The translations under genes and the position numbers were made by a program. The notes below the pieces were generated by a model. The model made no database searches, was not told where the DNA came from, and worked only from the letters and a program-made list of their open reading frames with translations. From Leucoraja ocellata (Eukaryota), in NCBI GenBank assembly GCA_036785375.1, contig JAWMAR010000008.1, positions 3,410,001 through 3,474,000 of the forward strand: a stretch of DNA of 64,000 bases, given 5' to 3'. This document shows positions 16,055 through 57,287 of the stretch, piece after piece (within the stretch, counting starts at the first letter, position 1; each line of letters begins with the position of its first letter).

Positions 16055-16171
16055 AGAATATGAAAGTCGTCTGTCTAGATACGCTGAGCGAATCTGGACG
16101 TGTAAAAGCACAGGCAGCAATCAGCTCACTCACAAGGAGGCCTGGGAGGAGGAGCAAGAAGTAACTGAATT
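16055..16171 (+). CDS. BAZ1B: BAZ1B exon 2 (WAC)
   Basis: EYESRLSRYAERIWTCKSTGSNQLTHKEAWEEEQEVTEL; cag|A...TT|gtaagt; 117 nt. Confidence 0.97.
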
Positions 16172-19818: not shown

Positions 19819-19883
19819 TTAATTTGCTCTTGCCTATTATGTTTAATAGTGGCTTTTTGCCATGTTCTGCTTTGTTACCATAG

Positions 19884-20028
19884 GCTAAAGGAGGAGTATC
19901 CAGTATGGTTTGAAAAACCTGTGTTGGAACTGGTTCATCATAATACGTTGTCCTTGGACAAACTAGTTGACAAAACCTGGATGGAAATTATGACAAAATA
20001 TGCTATGGGGGAGCAGTGTGAATTTCAG
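19884..20028 (+). CDS. BAZ1B: BAZ1B exon 3 (WAC)
   Basis: LKEEYPVWFEKPVLELVHHNTLSLDKLVDKTWMEIMTKYAMGEQCEFQ; tag|G...CAG|gttagt; 145 nt. Confidence 0.97.
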
Positions 20029-20627: not shown

Positions 20628-20829
20628 GTTGGGGAAAGCAAAATCCTTCCAGTCGTGGTGGTAAAGATACATCCTCTGGAGTTGAAACAGGAGTTGTCTT
20701 CTGAGAAGAAAACTGAAGGATCCTGCAATTCGCCTTCCAGTGACAAAGAGAACTCCAGTCAAGTGGCACAAGATAACCTTCGTACAGAAGTTTGCGTCAA
20801 AGTTGAGAGCAAGAGGGACAACAATATCA
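20628..20829 (+). CDS. BAZ1B: BAZ1B exon 4
   Basis: VGESKILPVVVVKIHPLE...CNSPSSDKENSSQVAQD; tag|GTT...ATCA|gtatgt; 202 nt. Confidence 0.96.
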
Positions 20830-22427: not shown

Positions 22428-22549
22428 GTGACAGAGCTCGCCGATCACCACGGAAATTACCTACAAGCCTCAAGAAGGAAGAGAGGAAATGGGTTCACCC
22501 AAAATTTCTACCGTATAAATATGATGTAAAACTGCTGGAAGAGGACAAA
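22428..22549 (+). CDS. BAZ1B: BAZ1B exon 5
   Basis: DRARRSPRKLPTSLKKEERKWVHPKFLPYKYDVKLLEEDK; cag|GT...AAA|gtaaga; 122 nt. Confidence 0.97.
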
Positions 22550-25809: not shown

Positions 25810-26007
25810 ATAATAAGTAATGTTCCAACTGAAAGTCTCATCCGCTCGGAGCGTCCACCAAACAAGGAAATCTTGCGATATTTCATCAGGCATAACTCGA
25901 TGCGAATGGGGATGGGTGAAAATGCACCCTGGGTGGTCGAAGACAAGCTTGTGGATAAATATTCTCTGCCCAGTAAATTCAGTGACTTCCTGCTCTCTCC
26001 ATACAAG
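25810..26007 (+). CDS. BAZ1B: BAZ1B exon 6
   Basis: IISNVPTESLIRSERPPNKEILRYFIRHNSMRMGMGENAPWVVEDKLVDKYSLPSKFSDFLLSPYK; tag|ATA...AAG|gtaata; 198 nt. Confidence 0.97.
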
Positions 26008-33404: not shown

Positions 33405-33409
33405 CTGAT

Positions 33410-34546: not shown

Positions 34547-36483
34547 TACATGATTCATAACCCTGTTGTGAATTTGGGGAAAAGAAAAAATTCTGGTTTG
34601 AATGAGGGAAAACCATCGAAAAAGGCCAGAGGAAATGGGGACCCAAACAAAGAGACAAACAAAAAACGGAAAATTAAAAATAAAGATAAGATTCCCTTAA
34701 GTCCACCTTTGAGCCCAACATTATGGGGACATGTACATGTGAAAAAGGCTATGAATGGTACTGACATGGCATATAGTCCCAAAAGATCTCCAGAACAAGA
34801 ACTGGAAGAAGTCATGAAGATAGTAACTCCAACCAAGCTGAACACCAATTTCCACATTCCCAAAAAAGGCTCCAATGCTGCCCGAAATTTAAAAAAGCTG
34901 CAAATCAAGGATAAAATTAACAAAAAGGAGAGGTCAAAGAATAAGAATAAGTTGGTTAATGGGCAGAAAACCCCAGGGAATAACAAATCTCCAAAAAAGG
35001 TTCTGAAAACACCAAAGAGAAAAATGAAGCAGATGACACTTTTTGAAATGGCAAAATCAGGTACTTCCAAGTCAGGAAAGATGCAGAAAGGTGTTGGAGG
35101 GGCATCAAGATCTGTGACTAAACCTCAGAAATACTTGCCACTCTTGGCTTTACAATTCCTTCGATATTTCAAAGAAAACAAAGGAAGGGAAGAGAGAAAG
35201 GGTGCAGTATCTGCATTTATCACTCGAGTAGCTAAAGTGCTTTCTGCTGAAGATCGTGCACGTTTACCAGACGAAGTCCGAGACCTTGTGCAGAAAAGAT
35301 ATGAGATGTTGGAACATAAGAGAAAGTGGGCATTGATGACCCTGGAAGAGCGAGAAGATTATCACAAGAAAAAACGTGAAGAGCTGAAGGTAAAGATGAA
35401 GGAAAAGGCCAAAGAACGAAGAGCAAAGGAAATGAAATTAAAATTGGAGAAACAGAAGAGATTCGAAGATCAGACTCTTACAGGGAAGAGTTTACCTGCG
35501 TTAAAGCTAGTTGATACTCCAGAAGGGCTCCCCAACACACTTTTTGGTGATGTTGCTATGGTAGTTGAGTTTCTCAGTTGTTATGCTGGTTTGCTAATGC
35601 CTGATGACCAATATCCAATCACAGCAGTTTCCTTGATGGAAGCATTGGCATCTGAAAAGGGAGGATTCCTCTATTTGAACAGAGTACTATTGATCCTCCT
35701 TCAAACTTTGCTACAGGATGAAATTGCAGAAGACTACCGAGAACTGGGGATGAAGCTGTCTGAGATCCCCCTCACTTTGCACTCTGCTTCGGAGCTTGTC
35801 CGGCTCTGCATGCGAAAGTCTGATGTACAAAATGAAAGTGAGGTGTCAGAAACTAATGAAGACTGTAAAGACTCTGTAGGGTTTGAAGACAATGAAGTTG
35901 CAGATGAATTTCTAGATAAGCTGGAAACTGCCGAGTTTTTCGAACTGACCCCAGAAGAGAAAGTGAAGATTTTAACAGCACTCTGCCATCGAATTTTGAT
36001 GACCTATTCGGTTCAGGATCACATGGAGGATTCACAGCATAAATCTGCAGAGCTTTGGAAAGAGAGGCTAGCCATGCAAAAAGAAGAGAACGACCGGAAA
36101 AAGGCTGAAAAACTGAAGAAAAAGGAAATGGAGGCAAAAAACAGAGAGCCAGAAAATGTAAAAACGAGTGACAAGAAAAAAGAGAAGAGGGAATTTGATA
36201 AAAAGCTAGAGGCCGACAAAGGTGTAAATGACTTATTGGTGGATGTCAACGGCAGTGAAGACCTCATTAGTGCCATTAAAAGCAGACGGCAAATGACAAT
36301 GCAAGCAAAAAAGGAGAAAGAGGAACGGGAAAAGCATGAGAAAGAGAGGATGGAAAAAGAGGTCGAGGGAGAGAAGATTCGCAAACAAAAAGCAGCAGCT
36401 GAAAAGGCTTTCCAGGAAGGAATTGCAAAGTCCAAACTTGTCCTACATAGATCACCGATGGGCACAGACCGCAACCATAATAG
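34547..36483 (+). CDS. BAZ1B: BAZ1B exon 7 (large, 1937 nt: kinase C-motif region, coiled coil, DDT, WHIM1, start of WHIM2/WSD)
   Basis: Contains PEGLPNTLFGDVAMVVEFLSCY (DDT), EEKVKILTALCHRIL (WHIM1) and SPMGTDRNHNR. cag|TAC...AG|gtatgt. Confidence 0.98.
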
Positions 36484-37026
36484 GTATGTAGTTTCACTGC
36501 TGATCAATCATGATCAGAAATCCACACTCCAGTGCTATTTTATTGATACGAAAATACTGTATTATTATGTTGATGCAATGTGAGATTTGTCAGTTCAGCA
36601 AAATGTTAAATTGGCTTTTGATTGGATGGACATTTGCTAAGATGTGCAACCCGACACATTGTATGAGGACCAATTCAACTTCTGGTTTGCAAATTTTTTT
36701 GGACGGAAGTCAGTACTGGTGACCTAAAAATATTGTTAAAAAATGTTTTTTTGCAGCTAATTTGAACTTGTTGAACTAGATTGGTTTTCCTCATCATGGA
36801 CAAGTATAGTTTTTCGATAAAATGGGGAAATCTCTTCTGGTTTTTTTCTTCTGTGTATAAAATTGTGCAGTAATTTCTGATGTAATAATGCTTAATTGTA
36901 TGTTCAACTGCGGTGAGATCTTTCTTAATAAATTAAGGACAATTAATTAAAGTTGAAAGTTTGCCCGTGAAAATGATTGGATGTGTGATCATGCAGTAAC
37001 AAAGCCTAACATTCCTTTTGCTGCAG

Positions 37027-37154
37027 GTTCTGGCTATTTTCTGACCTTGTACCTGGACTGTATGTAGAGAATGGCTGGGTACATGACAGTGTTGATTACA
37101 GCTTTACCCTTCCAGAAAAGTATACACGTCATGAAGAAGACCCAGACTCTAAAA
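37027..37154 (+). CDS. BAZ1B: BAZ1B exon 8
   Basis: (R)FWLFSDLVPGLYVENGWVHDSVDYSF...; cag|G...AAAA|gtaagt; 128 nt. Confidence 0.96.
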
Positions 37155-37947
37155 GTAAGTCTTCAATCCATACCATTTCATAAGAATCCCACTTTAGCTT
37201 AAATACCTATTGCTTATTCAGCAGGCAAAACAATTATTGATAACATGGCAGAATACTTCGTATGGGCAATTCCTGCACTATGGGAGGGATAGGCTCCTAG
37301 ATTTCCACATCTAGATTTTCTGTAAACCCACAATTTCTCTTTTGAATCCCATGTCCCATAGGCAGGGATTTGTTCCTGTAGATATGCTTTATCTCTCATT
37401 AAGACAATGACTGCGATCCACTGCCACTATATAACAGTTGACACCAACAGTAGCCTGTGGTGGACAAGGCTTATGAATTGAGAAAAGGTATAAGAAGTGC
37501 CGATATCAGAGAAAGGAATGACATTCGATAATGGGAGTACATGGTAGAAAGATTGTGTAGAAGTTCAGGTGGATAAAGGGCTGTGAAAGTGGAGTAAAGT
37601 CTAATGGATTGGTTTAAGCGGATGCAGTTTTCCTGCAATGCAGCTGTCGGGGAGAATGCCTCGTGCATGAAGAGCATGGCAGTACTGCCTCTGATGTGTC
37701 CATTCACGTGCTCTCAAGATAGAGGGGGTGTGACAAAGAAAGGAATCAGCTGTGACTGGCATGAGTTGGTGGTTTTATAGGCATAGGAGGAAAGAATATT
37801 ACAAAACTAATAATTTGAAATAATGGCATTGGTGGTGTGAACCTCTGGGTGGATTTGGAGTAATGGTATAGGCGAGCAATAGTGAAATTACTGCTTTTAT
37901 ATAGAAGGTAGCAACATCTTCAGCATGTCAATATTCCTGTTGTGTTT

Positions 37948-38093
37948 AAGAAGGAACTGCAGATGTTGGAAAATCGAAGGATTTTCTGAAATCGAAGCAG
38001 TCTGAAGAAGGGTTTCGGCCCGAAATGTTGCCTATTTCCTTCGCTCCATAGATGCTGTTGCACCCGCTGAGTTTCTCCAGCATTTTTGTGTAC
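37948..38093 (+). mobile_element. 146-bp Penelope-derived mini-element with hammerhead core and 15-bp TSD
   Basis: TSD attcctgttgtgttt (37933-37947, 38094-38108). Core CTGAAGA-a-GGGT(TTCG)GCCC-GAAA-tgtt at 38002-38029. A short inverted terminus sits at the left end. Confidence 0.88.
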
Positions 38094-38638
38094 ATTCCTG
38101 TTGTGTTTGTCTTGTCTGACTTTGTCAGCCCTGTTTATCTGCTTTGAATATTTGTGAAGATTGCTGCGATGAATAGATGGACATTTCCGGTCAAGAGACA
38201 CAATACATGTTACATTTAAAATTGTTTACCTTTTTGATTTCTATAAATCTATATTTATAGTATTTATTTTTCAGTCTAGTCTCTTATTTCGGAACGGAGA
38301 TCAAAGTATGATCCTTGTTCTTTGCTTTGGGGGAAGAGAATGAGAGGGAATTGGGGCAAAATGGTGTGTATGTAATGGTAATCCCATTTTTGACAGTCAA
38401 GGGATAGGCAAAGAAAGAAAAGAAAAACATCACACTGTTGTTGTGGGGATGCAAAGACCTTTGTTTTGCATGTTCCAGTGCTGAAGTAACTGACATTGAA
38501 ATTGCTTTTGGACAGAGGCTTCTATGATTTGTAATAATCGGGGTTAATGGATAAACTGGAAATATTTTAGTAAATATGTAATGAGTTAATAGTATTAATA
38601 TTCAAAAATTAAGGTGGATAACGTAATTCATCTTTCAG

Positions 38639-38756
38639 GCAATGATGACGACAGCATCGCTGAGAGCAGCTATAATGATGGTGGCCACCAGGGGTCCTCC
38701 TACGCAGCAGATATTTGCATTGGAACCACTGTGCCTAAACAAGGACAAAATCTATG
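38639..38756 (+). CDS. BAZ1B: BAZ1B exon 9
   Basis: NDDDSIAES...ICIGTTVPKQGQNLW; cag|GC...TG|gtacat; 118 nt, phases fit. Confidence 0.93.
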
Positions 38757-39298
38757 GTACATTCAGGTTTTACATTTATTTCGTATTATCAGAAAATTGT
38801 TGAAAATTTGGTTGTTTTAATCTTAAATTCTGTGTTTTCATTTTAAATGAAATGATCACTTTGATCATTTTGAATAAACTTTCCTCTTGTACTCTCCCAC
38901 ACGGATTTATAATTTCTCCGTTGCTGTTAAATTATATCTCATGAGCTGTGCATTGTTTACTTGCTTAATACATTTTAATTAGAAAACTTGAATTGTATTT
39001 TGGTATTCAGTTGCTGCTTTATTTTTCCATTACCTCTGCAATCCTTAAGCCAACCCTATCACCTTTCATGAGGTAGGCCTGCATGTCCCAGGCTCTTTGA
39101 CTGATTGAGGTGTTTTAAAAATCATATATATTGCAGCTTTTTGGGTGCTTTTTTGTTTGATTTTTACAATCTTGTCAACTTTCTTCTAGGGAGTATTCGT
39201 CCATTTATTTTAAAGTATTTTTGCACTATTTCTGATGTGTATATGTTTACTCTCCTCCTTTGGAAATAACAGTTGATGGGACTTTGATATATCCATAG

Positions 39299-39397
39299 GT
39301 TTGTGTGTGACACCCAGAAGGAGCTTGATGAACTTATGAACTGCCTTCATCTGCAAGGTGCCAGAGAAAGTGCACTAAAAGAACGACTTGAGAAAAA
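39299..39397 (+). CDS. BAZ1B: BAZ1B exon 10 (WHIM3/WSD)
   Basis: FVCDTQKELDELMNCLHLQGARESALKERLEK; tag|G...AA|gtaagc; 99 nt. Confidence 0.97.
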
Positions 39398-39409
39398 GTA
39401 AGCTGTAGC

Positions 39410-39565
39410 ACATGGACGTGTAGATGCTGGTTTACAAAAAAACTGTTAGAGTAACTCAGTGGGTCAGAGTCTGTGGAAGGATCCTGACCGAAATGTCGCT
39501 TTTCCATGTTCTTCAGAGATGCTTCCTGACCTGCTGAGTTACTCCAGCACATTGTCTTTTTTTGA
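39410..39565. mobile_element. Penelope-derived mini-element (diverged, partly palindromic)
   Basis: agatgctggtttacaaaa...gagtaactcagtgggtcag / gaaatgtc...gatgcttcctgacctgctgagttactccagcac. Confidence 0.65.
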
Positions 39566-39799
39566 GAAAAAATGTCCTCTTTAAAGTTCTCAGAAAACAA
39601 TTTTGTATTTTTGAAAGAAAGACTTGGTTTCAGCTTAATGATAGAATAAACCTTTGTATTTTATATATTTTACCAGTAAATTGGAAGGTTATTAATTTCC
39701 ATAAGATGATGGTAATACATTTTTTAATATGATTAGAAGCTAAGGGTCATGCAAATCTGCAAGTTAAAAATGCAGGTGCCTTTAAACAGTTATTTAATA

Positions 39800-40220
39800 T
39801 GTTATCCTATTAGAAGCTGTGAACCTTAAAGAACATGGCTGGAGTACTGAGCGAATTATTTGGTCTCTGTCTAAAGGAAGTGGTTGCCTTGGAGGAGATG
39901 TATTATTGACTTACTAGATTGATTCCTAGAACAAGGGAATTTGAGGAGAGTAAGATTGGCTTTTATAATTGATTTGGACAAAATTCCAAAAGGGATTGAT
40001 GGGGTATGTATGAAGAAGCTCTTTCTTCTGGCTGGCAAACAGTCAGTCTAGCTTCAGACAGAGAAATGTCTTTACTCAGAGTTGAAAAATGTTATAATTC
40101 TTTACAGTCAAGGTTATCACTAAGGGAATCTGAGGGAATGGGAGCCACACAAGATGGTCTAAGGTTAACTAGGAACTCTGAATGGCAGAAGAGACTTGAC
40201 TGGCTGATGGTCTTCGGTAT
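39800..40220 (+). mobile_element. Old CR1 3' relic
   Basis: ttactagattgattcctaga; agaaatgtctttactcagagttg; gacttgactggctgatggtctt. Confidence 0.45.
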
Positions 40221-40599
40221 TCCTCATCATCTGGCAGGTGAAACTATCTGAACTATAGCATTTTGGTTAGTTTAGTAACTCCATAGTATGGTAATGGTGT
40301 GTTAGCTTGGACTTTTGTGATCAACCCTCTGAAAAGGCATTTGTGACAGACCAGAAGGCAATAAGTGCAGGGCAAAAACAGTGAGGAACTATGCCTCAGT
40401 TCTGTTGCATTCTTCAAATACAACCTATTTGGTTTTATTGCTTTAATTAAAAATACATGTATATTTTGAAAGATTCACTGTGATTTCCACGCTCCTGCTG
40501 ACATCCAGACATCATATGGAGACCGTTGTTTGCTTGAAAGACATGTTATGGTCTAATGATGTAATTGACATTGCAATTTTTAATTATTTTAATTTATAG

Positions 40600-40777
40600 A
40601 TATCAAGATATTCTTCATTCACTTCACTTTGCACGGAAACCTAACTTAGGCCTAAAGTCTTGTGATGGCCATCAGGAGCTCCTCAACTATCTCCGAACAG
40701 ACCTGATTGAGGTGGCAACCCGATTGCAAAAGGGAGGGCTGGGGTACATGGACAAATGTGATGAATTTGAGGAGGGG
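40600..40777 (+). CDS. BAZ1B: BAZ1B exon 11
   Basis: YQDILHSLHFARKPNLGLKSCDGHQELLNYLRTDLIEVATRLQKGGLGYMDKCDEFEEG; 178 nt; gtgagt donor. Confidence 0.97.
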
Positions 40778-42255
40778 GTGAGTAACCACATAGACATACG
40801 TGTACTCTCCTAGTGTTTGTAGCACCAGCAGCTATTGTATATGGATGTTAGCACACTGTTAAAAATCAATAATTCAACGTCATTTGAAATGTTTCCCAGC
40901 AAATTATGACGAATAAAATTGCTGGATCTTTTTCCAGTTTAATGTTGAAACAAATGTTTTCTTTGCACTACCAAAAAGAAAGAATAAAACTGACTAGTCT
41001 CAAGCCATGAATATTCAGGTTTTGAAAACCACAAATGTGTATTTTCATGCCTTGTTAAAAATATTTAATCAGATTTTAAAGTAACTTATTTTTTATTTTT
41101 AAATTCAGGTGAATAAGCCCATCAACCTTGTCAAAGTTATTTTTCTTCTCCAAGAATTGTATCTGGAAGAAGTTTCAGCTATTATTCAGGAAGATTGTTG
41201 GAATCAAATGCAGAACATTGAATTACTATTAAGACAAATAAATCCTACAAAAAAAGAATGGCTAGCAAAATTTAATTAACCCTGGAACAGATGACAGTTA
41301 ATCAATTGACTGGGGAAGGATATTAGCTTCAAAGACAGACAGGGGAATCAATGTAAAGCCAGAAGAGTGGCCAAACTATCAATGGGGTATTTTATCGTAC
41401 TGAGGATAAGAATGGGATTAACAGAAAACTTAGAAATTCTCAGCAGGTGAGGCAGCTTCTTTAAAGACCGAAACAAGTTAATGTTTCTTGTTAAAGGCAT
41501 TTGGTAAGTCATAGTCCTGAACCATTAACTCTCTTTTTCTCTTTGCAGATGCTGCCTGACTTGAGAAGTTCAGTAGTTTGAATTTTTATTTTCCGTTTCC
41601 AGCATTTGGATTATTTTGCGTTTGTTGGATAAAATGGAGCTTGGATCAAATAACCCCATATTGGAATACTCTGTAGTACCTGTTATAGGGCTTCCCATGA
41701 AAATGGTCAAAGGAGGTATAGGCAATGGTTAGTCAACTGCCTGTACCTCTTATGATCATTTTCATAAAAAGTTACCTTTGAATTATGCTTTTTGGGTGGG
41801 TAGGGAAGGGTGAAGGTGAAGAAAGAAAATTATTGTCTTTATAACGCTTCTGATGTAATAGTAAGGAAGAGCACAGTTAATGCTTATATTTATATCCCCA
41901 TTGTTTCAAAGAACAGTGCCATGTGGATCTATTTCTGAAGCCAGGCAATTGGTAATATTCCTTTGTGGTGGCATCATTTCAGGACCAATTTATTAATCAG
42001 AACATTTTCTGAATTTATTAATCAGAACCAGAAAAAAATCTTTATGCCAAGCTATATGGGCAATAATTTCAAATTTGGCTTTGTTGATCTTTTTATACCT
42101 CTGGAGAACTACATCACATAATGTTTGTTATCGTGCATTTGAATGATGAGCATTTGAAGTTTGTGCCATTTAAGCAATACTGCTGTTAAGCTAAATTGAG
42201 GAGGCAAAAATAATTGCATGTTCCGATTGGTTGCTAATCTTGTATGATTTGCTAG

Positions 42256-42432
42256 GTGCGCTCGATGGACGATCTGAAGGATTTGGGCGAGTGCGTGATC
42301 ACACTTCAGGAGTGTGTAATAAAGAAATTTCTGCAAGGATTTATGGCCCCCAAGCAGAAGAAGAAGAAGGCAGGCGAGGAAGCAAAAGTGGAAGAAGTAG
42401 ATGAAGAAAAGAAGATGGCTGAAGAAGCAAAG
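42256..42432 (+). CDS. BAZ1B: BAZ1B exon 12
   Basis: VRSMDDLKDLGECVITLQECVIKKFLQGFMAPKQKKKK...EEKKMAEEAK; 177 nt; gtaagt donor. Confidence 0.97.
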
Positions 42433-42440
42433 GTAAGTTA

Positions 42441-43001
42441 TGTAGTTCAATGGTCCTTTATTGTCACATGTACAATTTAAGGTACAGTGAAATTTGATTT
42501 ACCATAGTCGTACCAGAAAAAAGCAACAAGACCCACAACTACATAAAAGTTAACATCCAACACAGCGGCTCTCCCACACTCCTCACTGTGATGCAAGACG
42601 ATAAACTCTTATCTTCTTTTCTCCTGCGGACGGGGCAGTCAAACCATCCGCAGTCAGGGCGATCGAATCTCCCGCAGCCGGGGTGGTCGAAGCTCCTGCG
42701 GCTTGGAGCTCCCGGTCGGTCCCTAAACAAAGGACCACGAGCTCCGAGGTCGATCCCCAGCAAGAAGCTACCAGCTCCTCGATGTTAGGCCACAGCGCGG
42801 ACGGAGATACGATACGGAAAACAATTGCATCTCTGTCGAGGAAAGAGATTAAAAAAAAGTTTCCCCCAGCCCTACCCCCCCACATAAGACAAAACTAAAG
42901 ATACATCAAACATACATTTAATAACATATTAAAAAGAACAGAGAAAGAAAAGGACGAGACAGACTGATGGCGAGGCTGCCATTGTACGGCGCCGCCCGGT
43001 G
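42441..43001 (-). mobile_element. GC-rich non-autonomous retroelement with Rex1-like tail (copy 2)
   Basis: Colinear with both ends of 23176-23992 (tttattgtcacatgtac...ggtacagtgaaatttgatt; cgatgttaggcc...gaaagagattaaaa; ggcgaggctgcc). Confidence 0.8.
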
Positions 43002-43694
43002 CAAGCTACACTCTTGGTTAAGAAACGGTGGTTGATAGTGTATCAGTCACGCATACTGCTTTGTCGCGGTGGGGTTGAACTTTCTGAGAGTTGTTAAAGT
43101 TGTATTTATAGAGGCAAGTGGAGAGTATTTGATCACGCTCCTGACTTCTGCCTATGTAAATGGTAGAAAGGCCCTGGGACTGGTAGTTATACCATTCATC
43201 GTAGTATGTCTGGCCTTTCACCTGTTCTTATAGCAGAATATTAATTTAGCTGGTCCAGTTGCGTGTTTGTAATATAGTAAGCCAGTCCCAATCTTGAAAT
43301 GGCAGAGTGAGAGGTGTGTTTAACGGAGTATTCTCATTAAACTTCTTGTATTTCTCATTTAAATTGCACCAAGAACAATATGCTTGATCTATCTTATTAT
43401 CTCACATTGTTTCCACTACCACTATTTCATCTTAATTTCAAAATGCTTTCACCACTTCAAGATTAGCCATTGGTGTGTTGTTCAAATAAACAGTTGAAAA
43501 TATCATATTCTCCACTAAATCACCAAAATTCCAATGAGGCAGAGAGCAGATGAATAGCACAAATAATCTTGACAATTCTGCACACCTATGTTTATTGCAG
43601 TGGCACTGCAGCATGCTGAAATGGCCAGCAGGGGTCAATATTAGTTTAACAAAGATAGCATATCATGTCAGTCTCTCCTCTCAGGCAGTCCTTT

Positions 43695-44130
43695 AGAAAA
43701 ATAGGTGTAGGAGTAGGCCATCCGGCCCTTCGAGCCAGCACCTCCATTCAATAAGATCATGGCTGATCATCGAAAATCAGTACCCCGTTCCTGCTTTCCC
43801 CCCCACATCCCTTGATTCCTTTAGCCCCAAGAACTAAATCTAACTATCGCTTGAAAACATCCAGTAAATTAGCCTCCATTGCCTTCTGTGGCAGATAATT
43901 CTACAGATTCATAACTGGGTGAAAAAATGTTTCCTCATCTCAGTCCTAAATGGCCTACCCCTTATTCTTAAACTGTGAGCCCTGGTTCTGGACTCCCCCA
44001 ACATTGGGGCCATTTTTCCTGCATTAGGGCTGTCCAATATAAAGAATTTTATATGTTTCTATAAGATCTCCTCTCATCTTCCTAAGTTCCAGAGAATACA
44101 AGTCCAGTTGACCCATTCTTTCATCATATT
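43695..44130 (-). mobile_element. CR1 3' end
   Basis: aaaataggtgtaggagtaggcc...cccttattcttaaactgtg...tataagatctcctctcatc. Confidence 0.85.
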
Positions 44131-45399
44131 GATGATCCCATTCTTTAGGATCAAGTATGACTTGTTTCTACTCTAACCTCAGAATCCACAAAACCAACAT
44201 GGGAGTCGCAGGCTCTTCCAAAGATGGTCCTGATGTACTGAGGGGGAAGTGATGTAGGGTGGGTGAGTGGTTATGCAGGACCTCGTATTGCACTCCATAT
44301 GTGGACTGTAGAGTGATCTCAAGATCATCCTAAAGGATATATTTCAATTTTCAGCAGTCATAGGCCAGGTATCACCAAGATTTTTTTTTTTTTATAGTCT
44401 TTTGCACATCCTTGAATCTCTGTTTCCCTGACACAGCTTGGTGCCTTTTCTGGGAGTTTAGTGTCAGGTATACACAAGACATTGGCTGCTGTTTGTAACC
44501 AACTTATAGGGTATCAGTGCTCCGGGCAATACCCTTCTATTAAATTTGGAGGATTTGGCAAAAAGTATGTTGGTGGTATTTATCCAGTGCCTTGAAGTGC
44601 CTGGTATAACAAAATCAAGCCCCAGGAACTACCGCTTTTCATTGAAGTGCATCAGGAAGTTTCTTCCTAAATATCATTGCTAGACAGGGCTACCTTCTCC
44701 AATATAAAAGTCTAATACAAGAAAATGTACTTGTGGCAAGAGTATTGTAAACAGAGAGTAATCGGTGGCTAATATTACATCGCTAGTTTTCAATATATCT
44801 CCCACAAATATATAGTGCAAGTTACACCATTCACTGACCTGCTAATGCTGCTGCCTTGTGCATTGCATTCACACTACATGAGTGGGCTAAGCAGGTGAAT
44901 CTTGAGTCAGTCAAGAGTGCAAAGCACCATCTCCATTTTAAGGAGTCATGAATAATTGACAGGCAATTGCAAATTGCTTCGCAATGTATTTGAGTAAGTT
45001 ACAGATTGGCCTTTTCAGCTGGAAAGAATCGTTGAATTTGAGTTTATGGAGGACACTCCGACCTATTTCTCTGGTGACAATTTAATCAGCAGTTCAGTAC
45101 AACAGGGAGAATGAGAAGGAGGCGTGTAGAGCGGTCAACCTGCCAAATGAGAACGAGGCACTATTCAGGAAGAGTATTAGGTGAAACATGAGAAAGTAGT
45201 CATGCCACTTTTGTTTTGTGCCAGTATGTAGTCTTTAAGCCATCAAGCCAAACCCAGTTTTGTGACGGGAAGACAGCTAATCTTTGTGCAAGTATCCCCT
45301 AAACTCAAGCATGAGCAAATGAGACCACAGCAAGTCATGTTGTGTTCTGCAATACCATTAAGCAAATTATTGGCGTATTAACACTTCTTCAGCTGTCTT

Positions 45400-45810
45400 G
45401 ATTATTCAGATGGTAGAGGCATTTTTGGAATTGGGTGCCTGCGGCTAAAGGTGTTCCACAGGGATTGGTGCAGGGATCTTTTCTGTTTCTATTACATGTG
45501 AATAAAGTGGATGTTGGAGGCATGATCAGCAAATTTGCGGATGACATAAAGATTAGCGGCAGTGTGGATGGTAAACTTAGGTTGCTGTGATGTTGGTGAA
45601 ATGGGCTGAAAAATGGCAGGTAGAGTTTAATCCTGATAAATGTAAACTGATACATTTTGGGAGTACTAATGAGGGAAGGACATACACTATATATGGTAAG
45701 ATCCTAGAGAGTATTGAGGACGGGGAACTTGGCCTGCAAGACCAAAGATCCTCGAAGGTGATACTGTGCGGGAGGTAATGTGGTTAAGAAGGTATACAGA
45801 TGCTGGTCTT
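45400..45810 (+). mobile_element. Old CR1 RT fragment, interrupted by L2 (resumes ~46440-46472)
   Basis: ggtgttccacaggga; agcaaatttgcggatgac (SKFADD); WAEKWQVEFNPDKC. Confidence 0.75.
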
Positions 45811-46437
45811 AATCTCCTCCCGACTGGACTATTGCAACTCACTTCGCCTTGGCATCAGCTCCACCTACATCAACCAACTCCAACTGGTCCAGAACGCAGC
45901 CGCCCGACTCATCACCCACACCAAATCCTGGCATCACATCACTCCAGTCCTCAAAAAACTTCACTGGCTTCCCATCTACCGGATCACCTACAAAATCATG
46001 ATCCTCACCTACAAAGCCCTCCACCATCTGCCCCCCCCATATCTCACTGACCTCTCCCCCTACCAACCCTCACGGTCCCTCAGATCCACATCAGCCGGTC
46101 TCCTCTCCATCCACAAGTCCAACCTCCGCAGTTTAGGGGACAGAGCCTCCCCCAACTGATCCGCAATTCCGTGTCCCTCACCATCTTCCAGTCCCGCCTC
46201 AAGACCCATCTCTTCACCTCTGCCTATCCTTAGCCCCACGTCCCCCTCCCTTTTCATCTGTGCATTAATTGCCTTATTATTGTGTTTTGTATTGAATTCT
46301 GTCTTTACTTTGTGTACTAGTCATGTCTCTACTATTTATTTCATTCCCCTTGCATGTTTTCCTCTACCTGCAAATTTTTTGTAAGGTGTCCTTGAGACTC
46401 TTGAAAGGCGCCCATAAATAAAATTTATTATTATTAT
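45811..46437 (+). mobile_element. L2-clade LINE 3' end
   Basis: ISSRLDYCNSL...LQLVQNAAARLIT...HITPVLKKLHWLPI (diagnostic of L2); tail cccataaataaaat(tta)n. Confidence 0.92.
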
Positions 46438-46649
46438 AATTTGTTAGTTGGGGTATTGAATACAAGAGCAGAAAGGGGGGGGGGGGGGGGGGGGGGAGGG
46501 AATAGAAGGCTGTCAAATGGGATGTAAAACTGGTTGTCTTAGATCAGGCACTTTCAACAATTTCCATTTGGCTCTTGAAGTTCCATCCATGGATTAAAAT
46601 AGCTTGTTATCTCTTTATTGCATGCTTTTTCTCATTTCAACTTTGATCT

Positions 46650-46900
46650 TTTGCCCAACCATTTGGCTATCAAAGCTGTCCCCCCCCCCCCCCCCCACCT
46701 GCATCCACCTATCACTTGCCAGGCTTTGTCCTGCCCCCACATCTCTTCCAGCTTTCATCCCCAATTACAATCAGTTAGAAGAAGAGGCTTGACAAAATAT
46801 TACCCGTCCATGCTCTCCAGTAATGCTTCCTGACTCGCTGAGTCACTCCAGCACTTTATGTCTTTTTTTTAAACTAGCATTTGTAGTTCCTTGTGTCCAC
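46650..46900 (+). mobile_element. Penelope pLTR-derived fragment (diverged)
   Basis: ccacctatcacttgccaggc...gcttcctgactcgctgagtcactccagcac...actagcatttgtagttccttg. Confidence 0.6.
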
Positions 46901-49060
46901 TTGTTAAAGTGACTATTCGCAATGAGTGAACCTGATCACTGAAAGTGGCCTGGTTGCAAAATAATTCCCATTAGACGTGATCCTTGTCGTATTCCTGGAG
47001 TCGCCTAAATAATTTACGCAATCTTATTTTCATCCTACACCTTCTCAAAGCCAGGGATGTTAAAGTGATTTGCAATTACCAACTGTTATCGTTATGAGAT
47101 CAGGTAATACAAAAGAGACTCAAATTGTCCCTGGGAACTTGCAGTCCGGTGTACTTCAGTGGCTATCATTTGAATCCTTTGATGTTACCAACCTACAATC
47201 AAACTCCAGTATGTTTTGGTTTAATGTATACCAGGCATTTTTCTGGATAATTATTTTATTTATGGGTAAAACTAGGTGATTAATCCACTTGTGTCCAGGT
47301 CATTGCACTTCAAAAAGCAAATAAAACCTGAACGTAAAATTGATACTGTTTGGCATTACAAAGCTGTAATCTAATTCTAGAATTCTTTAAATCAGACAAA
47401 TTTCAATACCTTCTGGACCCTTCAATTATTTCTCAGCCTTGTAATCACTTCCATGTCTGTAATTTTTTTTTCATGCAATCAAAGCAAAATGTATTACCTT
47501 TACACCTAGCTGAGGTAGTGTGTGGGTGCAGTGTTGAGTAGAGTGGGTGCAGCTGTTCAGCTGCTGTTGAATGACAAAATGCCTGTTGAATGGCAGTTCG
47601 GTGTGACTGCTCACTGTAATATGAGAAAAATAGACTCTTAAAATGAGTTGTTGCTTTGTTCAAAATTGGCAATAACAATTTTAAAGTTTGCAAAGGATTA
47701 CTGTGAGCCAGAGAGTGAAGATATTCCTCAGTACTTAACTTAAATTAGATTGCCACTGATTCTTTTGTCTGTTCAGGTTTTGCTTTTATGGTTAATGAGC
47801 ATAGAAAACATTTGGTTCCTTAGTAACCACATGCACTGAAGTGTGCTCATTTCTGTCTGTATTTGTTAAAACCAAGAGTCTTTGCTTCCGCTCTAATTCA
47901 TGTTTTCATAGGCTGTCAAAACTTTAAAACGTCTGTCTTATTTGAAGAACGATAAAAAGATTTTTAAGTCATCTTCAACATCTCTTAATTAACTGATGTT
48001 TATTACTTTACCCTTTGTTCTTTTTAATCAAACTATTGTGTCTATTCATCTTAGATTGTCAGTCAAGGAAAATGATCCTTAATGTTAGTTATCGTGTAAT
48101 GTTATCAACTAGCATATTGAATTATATATTTCAGTTTGTAAACTGTAATTAACTGAACATTACAGAGCAGATGGGAGATTCAATTCTGCTAACTGACCAT
48201 TTGGCCTAGAAGAAGAGGTACTAAAATTGAACAGTAATTGTTTAGAATATCAGACTCCTTTGAAATAAGAACAATCCAAACAAGATTAACTGGATTCCAG
48301 TTGACTATTGGCTAATTGAGTTTTGTAGAAATGGCTAAGAAGTGAGACATGCTGCTTTGTAAGAGTTGTGTGTTGGCTCTTTTCCAATTCTTTGTTTGCT
48401 TCAAGTTAAAGGTGGAAATAATTCCCAGAAGGGATAAGTTTCTACATTGATTATGTCTTCTCTATAGTTTGTAATAAAGTATATTTTTCAGGCCCAGCAC
48501 ATTATAAGCATTACAGACGCTTGAACTGTGATTTAGCAACCATTCTGTACAAAATAATTACCTTTTGTTGTGCCTAAATGCTTCATTTTCTTTCAAAGTG
48601 AACAAAATTAATGATAAGATGATGGCAGGTGTAAACCAATTATGCTGCTTATTTTCACTTTGGGTGAACATACATAGTAACAGTTAGTACGGGATGCATT
48701 TTGTCAGAGCATCCAATCTTTGTATAATGCAAAATAATGAGTGTGAAATATTTCTTTACATTTTAACAAAAGCTTGTCTTTCAATAATTTTTGTAAATGT
48801 ATGTTCTTGAGTGAAAGGCAAGTCAGGTGGGCGTTAGGAAGCTTGGATGATGAGAGAAAGGCTGTGGTCAAGAATAAGAAGGAGGCATAGGGCAGGTATT
48901 TGCAGCTGGGATCAAGTGGGAGGATTTTCGGGAAACGAGGGACACGCTAAAAAAGAGGACAGGAGATTGCTTTGACTAATAATAAGGATAATCCCAAAAA
49001 ATGTTAAGTACATTAAGGAAAAAAGGGTAACCAAATTGTAATTAATTAATTTACCTACAG

Positions 49061-49208
49061 GTTGCTTCTGCACTGGAGCTATGGAAAAGTGCTATCAGAG
49101 AGGCTCAGACCTTCTCCCGCATGCATGTGTTACTGGGAATGCTGGATGCCTGTATTAAATGGGACATGTCAACTGAAAATGCCAGATGTAAAGTGTGCCG
49201 CAAGAAGG
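49061..49208 (+). CDS. BAZ1B: BAZ1B exon 13 (start of PHD)
   Basis: VASALELWKSAIREAQTFSRMHVLLGMLDACIKWDMSTENARCKVCRKK; 148 nt. Confidence 0.98.
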
Positions 49209-49342
49209 GTAAGCACCACAGTCATCAGCTGTCTGATTGTGGGGAAATCTTCAAGTTGTGAATAGTTGTACAAAACAAGTTCGTATTTGAAGAAGGAAAC
49301 TTAACTTCATGATGCAGTTTAAGACGACCTGCAATTTCTAGT

Positions 49343-50085
49343 ATTTAGATAGCCTTTATTGTCATTCAGACCGAAGTCTGAACGAAATTGCAGCAGTCAT
49401 ACATATAATACAATAAAAACAACAATAAACACATATTAACATCCACCACAGTGAGTCCACCCAGCATCTCCTCACTGTGATGGAGGCAAAATTCTTAGGT
49501 CTGCAGTCTCTTCCCTCCTCTTCTCCCTCTGCGCTGAGGCGATACCCCCCGGGCGATGTTATAAATCAGTCCCGCGGCTCAAACACCGCGGCCCGGGGTG
49601 GTTGAAGCTGCCGCCCACCAGTCCTGCAGACGCAGCCGCTGACCCGCGGCCGAACCCCGGACTCAGGCCACCACCAGATGCCAAAGTTACCCTTGTGATC
49701 CTGGATGCTCTGAGAAATATCTTTCTTTATATATCACAGTTGATTTGTACACCGTCCCAGCCACCCTCACGTGAGTACCGCACCGTCTTCAGCCTCGGGC
49801 TGGGCCGCCCGACATGGGCGCCGAACCTCCGCCGGACTGGGCCGCCCCGACATGGGCGTCGCTTCTTCCCTGGGCCGGGCTGCCCCGACATGGGCGCCGA
49901 ACCTCCCTCAGGCTGCGAGCGCCGCACCTCCCCGAGCTCAGCCGCTCCGACGGGAGCCTCGTTCCACCCTCGGGCTGGCCGCCCTCACGGGAGCGTCCCG
50001 ACCTCTTCCAGCCCTGAGCCGGACCGCCCTCACGGGAGCGAGCTCAGGGCGAGTCCTGACGGGCTCTGCCTCCAGAGCCTCGAGT
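49343..50085 (-). mobile_element. GC-rich non-autonomous retroelement with Rex1-like tail (related subfamily, internal tandem repeats)
   Basis: cctttattgtcatt...gaaattgc tail and catccaccacag...ctcctcactgtgatgg block as in copies 1 and 2. Repeats ctgggccgccc(c)gacatgggcg x3 and gccctcacgggagcg x2. Confidence 0.65.
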
Positions 50086-50694
50086 AATTTTGACTATTAC
50101 TCGTTCTTCTTGGTGTTGATGCTGATATATAGTTTACCATCTGATTTTTATGTGCATGCTGCTCAAAACCCCACTGTTCGTGCACAGTTCAGGACTGCTA
50201 TTACATTGACTCTACCCATCCCTTCCTACAAAATGTGCTTCAGTATTAAATTCTGCTGCTGCTTGTTTGATTATTTTGTTGGACTATATATATGTCCTAA
50301 TGCACACGATTTACATTATTCTTGCATGTCTGCCAGTTCTTCACTTTTGGTATCTATGGAATTTGACTCCTGAGAAATGGCATTACGGTTCATCATTTTC
50401 AATTCAGCGTATCTTGCTGCTGGTTGTACCCTAGCTGGCCCTAGCTCCTACTCCATGAGCCTTAATTTTGATAAATAGACATTTATTGCCACTTTGACAA
50501 ATACTTCCTTAAACAAACTTCTGATGTCTGAATTTTATCTAATTTACTCTGTCCTGGATGTACCTATTTGGTTATTCCCTACCCTTACCTGGTATCAGTA
50601 TCCCAACCCATAACCACACACATATCTTGTCCAATCTATAACAAACATTTACTGCTCACTGTTCCACCACCCCCACTCAACCCATCCCATACAT

Positions 50695-51280
50695 CAGGGG
50701 TCGGCAACCTTGTTCTGCATAGGGGCCAGGAGGCATGTCTGTGAGCGGATGGTGAGCCACATCTATCACCTGTACACATGATCCCACCTTCATCCCACGC
50801 AGGGTGGCAGGCAACAAATCACGTAGATCCTGCCCCTTCGAGGACACCACCCAGAGCACTGGTGCTTAGTTATGGGTGCTCACGAACATGGCACAACCAA
50901 TTGCTTTGGCTCTGTCCTGAAGGTGGTGGTTCATATACTCACACTCACTTGTCCCTGGCGTATTGACAACCACGATCCCGACAGTGAAGCCCAGACACAG
51001 AAGGTGCGCGGCCGAGCCGGCGGCTTTGCGCAGGATGCGGTACAGCCAGTACTCGGCGCTGCTCGGTAGCGTTTGCCGGCTCCGCCATGGCGGCCGCCAG
51101 CGCAAGTCTCCTTGCGTCACTGCGCCTGAGCGCCGCGGCCTCGGGCCCGGGAGGGGGGGGTACCGGAGATGATGGAAGTCTTCAGGCCGGATAATTACTG
51201 GGAAAAAAATACCCCTGCGGGCCGAATGATTTCTGGTTACGGGCTGCATTCAACCGGGGGCCGTAAGTTGCCGACCCCTG
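50695..51280. mobile_element. hAT MITE, 586 bp
   Basis: TIRs CAGGGGTCGGCAAC / GTTGCCGACCCCTG; perfect 8-bp TSD ccatacat (50687-50694, 51281-51288). Confidence 0.93.
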
Positions 51281-51771
51281 CCATACATACACATATAAGC
51301 ACTTGTTCACAAACATGCTTTTCTCCATAGTTTTAAAGTTGGTTAGTTTGAAGGATGATAATTGTGAAATGTTAACTCTTTCCTTCTATCCATATTGCTG
51401 TCAGCTGCTGAGTGTTCACAATCTTTTTGTATTTTTGTCTTCGATGTTTAGCATCTGCAGTAGTCTGCATTTGTGAACTGGGCCTTTTGTTCTCTGCAAA
51501 AATGGACAATCTTTACTTTGTCTACTGTATTTATGTATACCCAGCAAATATATTCTTATTGGAATCCCCAAAATTATGAACAATTATGAAATGTTATTTC
51601 AAAATCTTTCATAGTTTTGGGGGATTCCAAGGAGAGTTTATTTAATGATTCTAATGTATCCTAACAGGTTTCAGAAACATTCTATTTAGTCTTTTAAATT
51701 AAAAAACAAACCTTGCTCAGATTGATCCATCTCCATGACTTAAACTTATATTTGTCATTTTATCTCCCCAG

Positions 51772-51919
51772 GTGAAGATGACAAGCTGATCCTGTGTGAT
51801 GAATGTAATAAGGCTTTCCACTTGTTCTGTTTGAGGCCAGCCCTGTATGTAATACCAGATGGAGAGTGGCTCTGTCCGGCCTGCCAACCACCCACAGCTA
51901 GGCGAGGAACACGAGATAG
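51772..51919 (+). CDS. BAZ1B: BAZ1B exon 14 (PHD finger)
   Basis: EDDKLILCDECNKAFHLFCLRPALYVIPDGEWLCPACQPPTARRGTRD; 148 nt. Confidence 0.98.
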
Positions 51920-52184
51920 GTACATTCTACAGCCTGCTTACTGTTCCACTTGTCTCATGGAGTCGTACATCACGGAAAGCTCATTCATGTTGTTCACAAT
52001 GCTGTATCTTAGCTAGTCCCATTTGTCTCCATTTGGCTCCTCTCCCTTTAAGCTTTTCTATGCATTACCTATCCACGTGTCTCTTATCACCTGTAGTTTT
52101 TATTTCATATGAAACCATACATGAAATAGATTCTAGCAGACATAATAGTAGGCTCAGTGAACATAATTGGCCTATTTTCATTAA

Positions 52185-53010
52185 CCATATAATAATAACC
52201 ATATAACAATTACAGCACAGAAACAGGCCATCTCGACCCTTCTAGTCCGTGCCGAACACATAATCTCCCCATGTCCCATATACCTGCGCTCAGACCATAA
52301 CCCTCCATTCCCTTCCCATCCATATAACTATCCAATTTATTTTTAAATGATAAAAACGAACCTGCCTCCACCACCTTCACTGGAAGCTCATTCCACACAG
52401 CTACCACTCTCTGAGTAAAGAAGTTCCCCCTCATGTTACCCCTAAACTTCAGTCCCTTAATTCTCATGTCATGTCCCCTTGTTTGAATCTTCCCTATTCT
52501 CAGTGGGAAAAGCTTTTCCACGTCAACTCTGTCTATCCCTCTCATCATTTTAAAAACCTCTATCAAGTCCCCCCTTAACCTTCTGCGCTCCAAAGAATAA
52601 AGCCCTAACTTGTTCAACCTTTCTCTGTAACTTAGTTGCTGAAACCCAGGCAACATTCTAGTAAATCCCCTCTGTACTCTCTCTATTTTGTTGACATCCT
52701 TCCTATAATTAGGCGACCAAAATTGTACACCATACTCCAGAATTGGCCTCACCAATGCCTTGTACAATTTTAACATTACATCCCAACTTCTATACTCAAT
52801 GCTCTGATTTATAAAGGCCAACACACCAAAAACTTTCTTTACCACCCTATCTACATGAGATTCCACTTTCAGGGAACTGTGCACAGTTATTCCCAGATCC
52901 CTCTGTTCACCTACATTCTTCAATTCCCTACCATTTACCATGTAAATTCCCTACCATTTACCATGTAAATTCCCTACCATTTACCATGTAGTTCCCTACC
53001 ATTTACCATT
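52185..53010 (-). mobile_element. Young 5'-truncated CR1 with uninterrupted ORF2 C-terminus
   Basis: 243-aa stop-free ORF 52210-52941 (QRDLG...LYKALVRPILEYGVQFWSP...FFTQRVVAVWNELP); (atatggtt)-type tail. Confidence 0.93.
52922..53009. repeat. ~23-bp tandem repeat, about 4 copies, at the CR1 5' junction
   Basis: (a)aattccctaccatttaccatgt repeated; the first copy is part of the CR1 ORF. Confidence 0.9.
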
Positions 53011-53793
53011 GTCTTGAATTATCTTCAATAATCAATTGTCACTGGATGTTTTCCTGACAACGAGTCACTTTCATCTAGATCTACTCAAAGGTTGTTCAGC
53101 TAAATAAAAGATCTGATGTTCATTGTCTTTCCTCTTCTGCTTGTGCCATTTTCCTTTGTTCTGCCCACATTATAGAGCTACAAAATTGAGTTCCGGAGAT
53201 CCACATTCAACACGATGTTTGGATCTTAGGCCATTTTGAAAATACAGGTGCCATTGTGCCCAGAATCTATGCTTATCATCAGTCAATCTGAAAATTAAAG
53301 GCATTGACACTGAGTGGAACTTGTGTCTTTGTAAAGTTATTTTATTTTATGCCTTTTGACTGCATCTCCACACAGAGTTCAACAATTTCAGATAATATTT
53401 TTCAACATTTTTTACTTTGTATTTTCAGCATTAACTGCAATGTCTCTGTATATTCAAGGAGTGATTCTATTTCTCCCATTGATACCACATACTAAATATA
53501 GTTTTCCCTTCTGAATTACACCCTAACATAGAGTACCTCCTTCCCTGTATTCTCTCCACTGTATAATCTATATAACTCCAATCTTTCTTCCTCCTAACAG
53601 CATGTAATGGACATGAAACTTCTAATTTGATTTCCCTCCACGGATGTTGTTTGATTTGCTGAATGTTTCCAAATTCCATTTTTATTCGCCATTTATGAAA
53701 GTCACTGTAATTTGCATTTGCAATAAAGATTGTAAGCCAAAAGTCATCCTTGCATGTGAATAAAAAAAATCTCTCTCAATTACGTCCTTTTAG

Positions 53794-53921
53794 AAATTAT
53801 GCTGAAGAGGAAGAGGAAGTAGAAGAAGAGGAGGAAGAGGAAGTAGAAGAAGAGGAGGAAGAGGAAGAAGAGGAGGAAGAAGACGATGATTATGAGGAGC
53901 GAGAAGGGCCTAGACTTAGAT
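53794..53921 (+). CDS. BAZ1B: BAZ1B exon 15 (acidic tract)
   Basis: NYAEEEEEVEEEEEEEVEEE...DDDYEEREGPRLR; tag|A...T|gtaaga; 128 nt; phases fit. Confidence 0.95.
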
Positions 53922-54039
53922 GTAAGATGTGTTTCTAAGCAATAATTTTCAACATTTAGTATCTTGTATTATTTTTGATTTATAATTGTCATGTATACAG
54001 TGAAAAGCATTGTGTACGCTATCTAGTCAAATGTACTAG

Positions 54040-54740
54040 GCAATCTCTAGGGCCTAAAGGCTGATAGGTTTCCTGAACTGATAGCTTACATCTTGGGCTC
54101 TTCTGGGGAGAAAAGAGTGGCTGTTGAATTGGTGCAATTTAACAATGAAGTTTGATTACCACTTTGATTGGATAGAAAATACAATTGGCAGATTTTTATG
54201 AAAGGATACAGTTTTTGAAAAACATTTGTGGGACTCTGGGGATGTAATGAGGGGACTCAACAAAGGCGATGCATTTGGATTTCCAAAAACTATTCAATAG
54301 GATGTTGCATTCAATGTCAATGCACTAACTAAGAACATACATGGTTATACATTAACATCAATAGAGGTTTGGCTAGCTAACAGAAAGCTGTGGTAAATAG
54401 ATGATATTCTAACTGGCACACTGAAGCTAGTCAGGTGACATGGGGGTCAGTATTGGAAGTCAATTAGTTACAGTTTATACTAATTCGGGACTGTGCACTA
54501 ACCACATTAGCTAGTCAGTTATCGGAACAATCTGGGAAAGAATGGTGATTAAGCAAGTGGATAACATTTGGTCGATGGCATGAGTATAATGTGAAGAAAT
54601 GTGAGTTTATCCACTTTGGTTGGGAAAGTAGAAAAGCAGAATATTGTTTAAATGGAGAGAGAGAATACAGAGCAATCTGGTTATTATTAAAGCTAACCAT
54701 CAAGTAATTAGGAAAGCAAATGGAATGTTCACTTTGTTAG
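54040..54740 (+). mobile_element. Ancient CR1 RT relic
   Basis: gcctaaaggctgataggtttcctgaactgatagcttacatc; aaatgtgagtttatccactttggtt; aattaggaaagcaaatggaatgtt. Confidence 0.65.
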
Positions 54741-54809
54741 GAAAGGATTAAACATTTCTTGCAACTTCTGAAACTTTAGTGCTTTTGATATATTATTTCT
54801 GTGCTTTAT

Positions 54810-56505: not shown

Positions 56506-57132
56506 TTTGCTCTATGTAAGGTGAGCAGAACAGCTGCCATGACGTCTGTTCAGAAATGTGGTAGGGGGACTTGAGTTGCATGCCATTCTGTGGGCGCTGT
56601 TGGAGCTAATCTTAAACTGTACTAAGATTAATTTTAAATTGTTATTTTACGTATCGGCAAAAATGATAAATGGAGCTGAATAAGAATCATGGAATTAATC
56701 AGGAAATGTTTAGAGATAAAATTAACATTGTGGTATTGAGCTCTTCCAGAATCTTCTGGGTTTAGACCCTATGTTGCACAGCTTCATTCTGAGGCCTTGA
56801 TAACCCTTGCAACAAGGAAGGGAAAGAACGATCATACTCTCATGTCCTAATTACCTTGTAATCTAAGTGTCGGATTTTGTTCTGTGGAAAGTACTGAATG
56901 CCGGTAGGTTTTCGTGGAAAGACTAACATGAGACCTTGTCGTCAAGAAGATGGACTAATGTGGGGAGGGTGTCCTTATAAATTGAAACTTGAGGACTGAG
57001 CATAATGGGGTGAGAGATGATGGAATGCAGCTTCAAACCAAACAAAAGCTTTGCTGGAATCCACTTGAATGGTGCGCATGAAAGGATCTGTGTGCCAGCA
57101 GAGTGATCACATGTGAATCTTGCTCTTTACAG

Positions 57133-57287
57133 CGAGACCCAAGAAAGCTGCCAAAAAAAAACCAGGCGTTCGGGGCCGTCCTCGGAAACATCCCAAACAG
57201 CCGGAGAAGAAACGGTCCCCGCACGGTCAAGGCAAAAATACTCGACGCAAGACATCGCCTGTCAACGGAGTGGACATTGATGAGCTG
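57133..57287 (+). CDS. BAZ1B: BAZ1B exon 16 (basic linker before the bromodomain); the gene continues beyond the window
   Basis: (S)RPKKAAKKKPGVRGRPRKHPK...NGVDIDEL, aligning with human RPRK...EVDEL; cag|CG...CTG|gtgagt; 155 nt. Confidence 0.9.

Follow-up and report, generated by a model that had tools for sequence, protein, structure and literature searches.

Glycine in place of mammalian Cys338 in the BAZ1B (WSTF) of a ray is probably the ancestral residue of jawed vertebrates

In human and mouse, BAZ1B (WSTF) serves the WICH remodeller as its accessory subunit, and it has been reported to be an atypical kinase for Tyr142 of H2A.X; Cys338 of the human protein is reportedly essential for this activity. 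According to a review, the WSTF kinase has no homology to known kinase domains, its activity is Mn2+-dependent, and the N-motif alone has minimal activity, while the C-motif is inactive itself and merely enhances it (PMC8536118). The supplement of a paper using a "kinase-dead" WSTF contains a C338A primer that spans PLNPKLW-A-HV, and this protein also does not accumulate at DNA lesions (PMC6614800). A study on the mouse germ line describes BAZ1B as dispensable for pY142 there (PMC4571090). Other properties have been mapped as well: human BAZ1B contains ATAD5- and PCNA-binding motifs (PMC11615311), and a preprint describes WAC-downWAC of Itc1, ACF1 and BAZ1B as a module that is predicted to bind DNA and sits on a disordered linker (10.1101/2025.04.27.650761). 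In the literature searched, with subscription papers outside its coverage, we found no earlier note of the variation at Cys338 or of the shark H2A.X tail reported here; the species tables of H2A.X-Y and H2A.X-F in PMC12153100 may already list shark H2A.X-F.

The DNA analysed here, a stretch of 64 kb (the window), contains the orthologue of this mammalian gene. With the BAZ1B protein of Narcine as tblastn query, 15 collinear exons were located on the forward strand between 9503 and 57290, matching Narcine residues 1-1374 (Table 1); bromodomain exons were not found within the 64-kb window. When exons 1-6, whose borders like that of exon 7 are AG/GT, are joined to the first 230 codons of exon 7, the resulting 530 codons contain 0 stops, and the direct junction of exon 6 to exon 7 is present in 35 reads of RNA run X24. 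WAC, WHIM1, WSD and PHD were found by Pfam in this order in Narcine BAZ1B, with which the window exons are collinear, and WHIM1 was detected directly in exon 7 of the window. The top named homologues of the window protein are BAZ1B proteins, its identity to Narcine across exon 7 is 89%, and in a tree of exon 7 (60 rows, 557 columns) it is the sister of Narcine BAZ1B with a support of 0.997, within the cartilaginous fishes. This BAZ1B stretch has a single match in the whole genome. Similarity to the mammalian protein is high in the N-terminal part (identity to capuchin 103/140 over residues 1-140 and 67/82 over 219-300), and the ATAD5- and PCNA-binding motifs of human BAZ1B are kept, with EQCEF at residue 121, KYDVK at 224, KIIS at 234 and KQMTL at 461. 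The gene is a spliced, expressed and ordinary BAZ1B (WSTF) of a ray or skate.

Table 1. Features of the BAZ1B gene in the window and the H2A.X gene of the same genome. Positions are those of the window unless a contig is given.
Feature	Position	Strand	Basis
BAZ1B coding exon 1, WAC start	9503..9618	+	tblastn, joined-exon translation
BAZ1B exon 2, WAC including invariant Cys55	16055..16171	+	tblastn, joined-exon translation
BAZ1B exon 3, ATAD5-binding motif 1 EQCEF	19884..20028	+	tblastn, joined-exon translation; motif according to PMC11615311
BAZ1B exon 4	20628..20829	+	tblastn, joined-exon translation
BAZ1B exon 5, ATAD5-binding motif 2 KYDVK	22428..22549	+	tblastn, joined-exon translation
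BAZ1B exon 6, downWAC, end of the predicted folded module	25810..26007	+	tblastn, AlphaFold
BAZ1B exon 7, linker, LSPxLW motif, KQMTL (35027-35041), WHIM1	34547..36483	+	tblastn, Pfam, RNA junction reads
Lys-rich spacer, long form	34634..34690	+	distances from exon-7 start to the Cys338 column
Short conserved motif L-[SN]-P-x-[LMI]-W-(G)-x-[VM]-x-[LV]-x-K in predicted disordered linker	34709..34747	+	93 rows, pLDDT
GGA codon, Gly361, equivalent of mammalian BAZ1B Cys338	34727..34729	+	alignment, RNA reads
Eight further BAZ1B exons to Narcine residue 1374, approximate borders	37025..57290	+	tblastn
H2A.X gene, single exon, ends SQDF	G000:C34:1455991-1456443	+	genome search, H2A domains

Exon 7 has a long open frame, in which positions 34724-34732 read TGG GGA CAT (W-G-H); the encoded Gly361 pairs with Cys338 of capuchin BAZ1B, with 10 of 15 residues identical over 331-345. 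The original prediction of a Gly at the Cys338 equivalent is thereby borne out. No alternative Cys can substitute for it, because the nearest upstream Cys is residue 182 and the first 250 residues of exon 7 are free of Cys; the check for a different Cys at the motif found none. The raw reads of run X24 cover 34720-34734 at a depth of about 52 and contain only GGA letters at the codon (alternatives were listed from a threshold of 5%); above this threshold, the TGY codon that would have spoken for a Cys is absent from these RNA reads. Contigs of runs X15, X19 and X1 agree with GGA; X15 may be the source of this DNA, and the organism label of X24 differs from that of X15. A single-base sequencing error had been regarded as unlikely from the start, and the RNA depth together with the three concurring contig sets confirms this. 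More generally, the Gly might be an artefact of sequencing, of misalignment or of a dead or paralogous copy, and the many broken H2A copies in the assembly show that errors do occur there. However, besides the concurring reads and contigs, the frame is open over exons 1-7, the single genome match groups with Narcine BAZ1B, and the identical Gly is present in 35 database proteins, so that we regard an artefact as extremely improbable.

The distribution of the residue was followed in an alignment of 121 rows, made of the window and the best 120 of 440 homologues, in which the Cys338 column holds G in 36 rows, C in 69, S in nine, D in four, N in two and a gap in one. Counted by genus (90 genera with 92 genus-state pairs; three unnamed rows and the gap row were left out), Gly is present in 5/5 genera of cartilaginous fishes, in the coelacanth and in both caecilians (2/2). 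The 21 genus-state pairs of ray-finned fishes are more diverse, with 14 G, three S, two D, one N and one C; the bichir has Gly, the gar Ser and the sturgeon Asn, and the only Cys is that of one cyprinid. In addition, Ala was found in the serrasalmids, the piranha family (6/6 proteins from four genera), and the column consequently tolerates C, G, S, D, N and A. Cys prevails in frogs (16 of 19; Xenopus and Pyxicephalus have Ser, Discoglossus has Gly) and is the only state in salamanders (2/2) and amniotes (42/42 genera). Among 62 rows of jawed vertebrates, Cys 52, 120 and 156 are unchanged in 62/62, and Cys338 is present in 36/62.

Except in batrachians and amniotes, Gly is the most frequent residue, and Cys is thus the derived state by parsimony over the clades. 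With this argument, made by hand and with a BAZ1B sampling without lungfish and lamprey, Gly is likely to be ancestral for jawed vertebrates; the root state rests on jawed vertebrates, because the hagfish and invertebrate homologues are without the motif. Cys may have arisen in tetrapods, either with one gain and a loss in caecilians or with two gains, and again in one cyprinid. The suggestion that Cys338 is restricted to certain lineages has therefore held up, whereas a peculiarity or loss in this one orthologue is not supported, given the Gly in cartilaginous fishes, coelacanth, caecilians and most ray-finned fishes. Two further observations concern the same column: the Ala of the piranha family is the residue of the human "kinase-dead" mutant, and BAZ1B_XENLA from Xenopus laevis, curated as tyrosine-protein kinase BAZ1B, has a Ser at this position and a degenerate motif.

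The Lys-rich segment preceding the motif, which had been taken for an insertion, is present, but it is not specific to this species. The start of exon 7 and the Cys338 column are 60 residues apart in the window protein. The corresponding distance is 56-60 residues in cartilaginous fishes, 52-69 among ray-finned fishes, 66 in the coelacanth, 54 in caecilians and 58 in salamanders, compared to 38-41 in amniotes and 36-47 in frogs. Judged by these distances, the long spacer is the common state, which appears shortened in amniotes and frogs. The window protein thus resembles those of Narcine, sharks, chimaera, coelacanth, caecilians and teleosts in having both the same Gly and the same long Lys-rich spacer, and differs from the mammalian protein in the Gly for Cys338 and in a linker that is about 20 residues longer. 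In the isoform models of catshark, smoothhound and chimaera, nine extra residues are found at the exon 6-7 junction, likely encoded by a micro-exon; this shark-type micro-exon was not found in intron 6 of the window (26008-34546), and none of the 35 junction reads contains it.

Gly361 is part of a short motif whose other positions are far more constant than the residue itself. In 93 rows, the flanking L is kept in 90, P in 89, W in 90 and the last K in 89, while position 0 holds C in 61, G in 24, S in five, D in two and N in one. By eye, the LSPxLW motif is absent in 27 more distant homologues, including BAZ1B-like proteins of hagfish, amphioxus, mollusc and crustacean. As in ACF1/BAZ1A and yeast Itc1 (10.1101/2025.04.27.650761), a predicted folded N-terminal WAC-downWAC module is followed by a long disordered linker; what sets the BAZ1B of jawed vertebrates apart from these proteins is the additional LSPxLW motif within the linker. 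AlphaFold models were calculated for Narcine (407 residues, 102 rows), which stands for the window protein, and for capuchin (387 residues, 106 rows). In both forms the preceding module is mostly predicted with pLDDT >90 and ends near residue 300 (~1-304). Around the motif, residues 353-376 of the Gly form from Narcine and 323-352 of the Cys form from capuchin have pLDDT <50 and no secondary structure, which is compatible with a thin alignment (the motif is present in jawed-vertebrate rows only) or with folding on binding.

The predicted module, encoded by exons 1-6 (9503-26007), appears to consist of a split Cac1-like winged helix and a split Tudor-like barrel. Parts of it resemble the Cac1 winged helix 5ejo_A (Z 9.9, rmsd 2.1, 71 aligned) and Tudor/PWWP-like barrels (best 6kco_A, Z 8.5, rmsd 2.2, 56 aligned), with middling scores; this agrees with the preprint's description of WAC-downWAC. 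Foldseek returned nothing at E<=0.001, the best match being fission-yeast Clr2 (5ikj_A), which is weak with E 0.017. A protein kinase was found neither among the Foldseek matches listed nor in the VIA top 50, in searches that were dominated by residues 109-252 and barely probed other parts; a sequence search of the PDB gave only PHD and bromodomain matches among the matches listed (60 of 500). Within the WAC domain, Cys55 of exon 2 is invariant in 102/102 rows including the distant homologues, and Ala68 and Glu72 are likewise invariant in the 102 rows. If a functional Cys is sought, this conservation would make Cys55 a better candidate than residue 338.

Two known short-motif patterns were compared with the LSPxLW region. 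The HP1-type xVxL pattern fits 59/93 rows. A reading of W-x-x-V as an LIR, which fits 73/93 rows, is not supported, since GABARAP binds residues 474-483 (10.1101/2022.10.04.510822). Heterochromatin targeting of BAZ1B has been mapped to C-terminal AT-hook-like motifs (10.1101/2023.10.20.563387).

The substrate side of the proposed pathway was investigated in the same genome. All 69 matches to the H2A C-terminus were read, and a single one ends in an SQ motif, which is SQDF; these searches give lower bounds, and a Tyr-ending copy may be missing from the assembly. The H2A.X of this genome has Phe in place of Tyr142, a codon known from the assembly letters alone, and its tail matches the SQEY tails of frogs and salamanders until the last residues. 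The question whether the tail ends in SQEY or SQEF, raised with the original prediction, is answered for the only H2A.X found, which is without Tyr. A second H2A.X ending in SQ was not found in a six-frame scan of 89 loci, made up of the 69 and of 20 further loci from a search with cod H2A.X that had 128 matches. DNA patterns designed for another H2A.X tail, three in number, matched 9, 2 and 20 times, with 4, 1 and 37 matches for their controls; an H2A core was present only in the SQDF gene. No H2A was found in 160 kb of sequence surrounding the H2A.X gene and the two copies of HMBS. On the contig of the H2A.X gene, DPAGT1 is 0.12 Mb and HMBS 0.6 Mb away. These two genes also flank human H2AX, and this neighbourhood suggests a canonical H2A.X rather than the maternal paralogue H2A.X-F. 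The C-terminal Phe for Tyr resembles that of Xenopus H2A.X-F (H2A.X.3); in contrast to the ray, in which the SQDF protein is the only H2A.X found, the Xenopus protein is maternal and coexists with an H2A.X that ends in SQEY (PMC4191874). Chordates often have both H2A.X-Y and H2A.X-F, which applies to 23% of those analysed in PMC12153100.

A tail with Phe is not confined to this genome. The 12 named H2A.X proteins of sharks and rays comprise seven from sharks with SQEF, three from batoids with SQDF and two from Mobula with SQDY, and the retrieved H2A.X proteins of hagfish, lungfish, sturgeon, teleosts, amphibians and amniotes end in SQEY. The state of BAZ1B does not follow the substrate, as Aldrovandia combines a Gly in BAZ1B with SQEY in H2A.X and Acipenser sinensis an Asn with SQEY. 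Since Aldrovandia pairs Gly with SQEY, the change from Tyr to Phe in sharks and rays looks later than, and separate from, the state of BAZ1B. Measured against the mammalian definition of a WSTF-type kinase, the ray protein has the WAC N-motif and lacks Cys338, and the one H2A.X found lacks the Tyr142 substrate. With an H2A.X ending in SQDF, phosphorylation of Tyr142 would not operate as a switch in this animal irrespective of BAZ1B, and judging from the genes found, the Tyr142 DNA-damage switch is likely to be absent in this ray. Signalling of Ser139 to MDC1 would be kept; H2A.X with Y142F is MDC1-proficient (PMC11143218).

We consider it probable that Gly361 is the ancestral residue of jawed vertebrates and that Cys338, acquired in tetrapods, serves docking or tuning and is not catalytic. 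From the conserved motifs and the mammalian data, ray BAZ1B would have its usual role as accessory subunit of WICH, an ISWI remodeller: WAC-downWAC would hold chromatin and ATAD5, the linker would bear two motifs, LSPxLW and KQMTL, the latter for PCNA binding, and SMARCA5 and histones would be bound by the middle and C-terminal domains. The human C338A mutation might then weaken what the motif docks to, which could be a partner or the module itself, and leave catalytic chemistry unaffected. This docking role is proposed from the conservation pattern of the motif. The basal activity of the N-motif (PMC8536118) and the failure of the "kinase-dead" protein to accumulate at DNA lesions (PMC6614800) speak for this view. 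The predicted disorder, together with the variety of residues tolerated, favours doubt about the role of C338, an alternative raised with the original prediction, over the "other chemistry" that it had also offered for this orthologue. Against the docking role stands that Cys is fixed in 42/42 amniote genera and CxxH present in 40/42, a sign of some kind of selection that would be consistent with a metal site. It is also opposed by the use of C338A as kinase-dead with loss of function in human cells (PMC6614800) and by the Mn2+ dependence of the activity (PMC8536118). These points would agree with the kinase being an invention of tetrapods, in which the change from Gly to Cys completed a CxxH metal half-site for Mn2+-dependent catalysis and the enzyme of this ray, like that of most fishes, is weak or inactive; CxxH is likewise found in 2/2 salamanders, and the His at +3 is already present in 5/5 cartilaginous fishes. 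Yet frogs have the Cys without the His (CxxH 0/19) and Xenopus has Ser, the site is predicted to be disordered in the Cys form as well, and the review assigns basal activity to the N-motif (PMC8536118). In addition, hagfish, sturgeon, teleosts and lungfish keep SQEY although BAZ1B of ray-finned fishes is mostly without the Cys, and we think a tetrapod origin of the kinase rather unlikely.

A joint loss of kinase and target in sharks and rays, with Cys and Tyr142 decaying as a pair, could explain why Gly occurs together with SQDF here and why SQ[ED]F is the ending of 10 of the 12 further H2A.X proteins from sharks and rays. But bichir, coelacanth, caecilians and most teleosts have this Gly too, the pairings in Aldrovandia and Acipenser sinensis show non-Cys residues beside an intact SQEY, and two Mobula species have SQDY, all of which makes such a paired decay very unlikely. 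Returning to Cys338 as a docking residue, a wider proposal is possible, if doubtful: the WSTF-H2A.X Tyr142 switch would not be vertebrate-wide, with both the Cys and the Tyr missing in most sharks and rays and the "kinase-dead" Ala occurring naturally in piranhas, the "kinase domain" would be a chromatin module made of a winged helix and a Tudor-like fold with Cys338 in a disordered docking motif, and WSTF may be a scaffold for a kinase instead of having intrinsic kinase activity.

As a gene, this BAZ1B is unremarkable, and its Gly is already contained in public fish records. The value of these data lies in a natural test panel for a claim with little structural support and in the lead to an H2A.X-Phe of sharks and rays. 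Orthologues that naturally have Gly, Ser, Ala, Asp or Asn at this site, with or without a Tyr-ending H2A.X, are a ready panel for the question whether Cys338 is catalytic, and the name "tyrosine-protein kinase BAZ1B" on all these proteins is a transferred annotation. If it is true that sharks and rays lack Tyr142 of H2A.X, they would be vertebrates without the repair-versus-apoptosis switch attributed to this residue.

Several minor observations were made in the assembly and the reads. HMBS matches twice in opposite orientations on the contig of the H2A.X gene (G000:C34:59200-61246 and 853765-855829), which is either a duplication or an assembly artefact. Of the H2A copies in the histone clusters on G000:C294, C435 and C368, many are frameshifted or truncated; these clusters also include an H2A type that ends in KVYV or KIYI. 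In the window, the intronic frames at about 6300-7250, 29060-29860, 52200-52950, 55900-56400 and 60900-62000 resemble Tc1/mariner transposase and CR1-type LINE fragments. Within exon 7, run X24 shows an extra A in the A-run at 34660 in 8/71 reads, probably due to slippage, and a synonymous G>A at 34741 in 27/49 reads.
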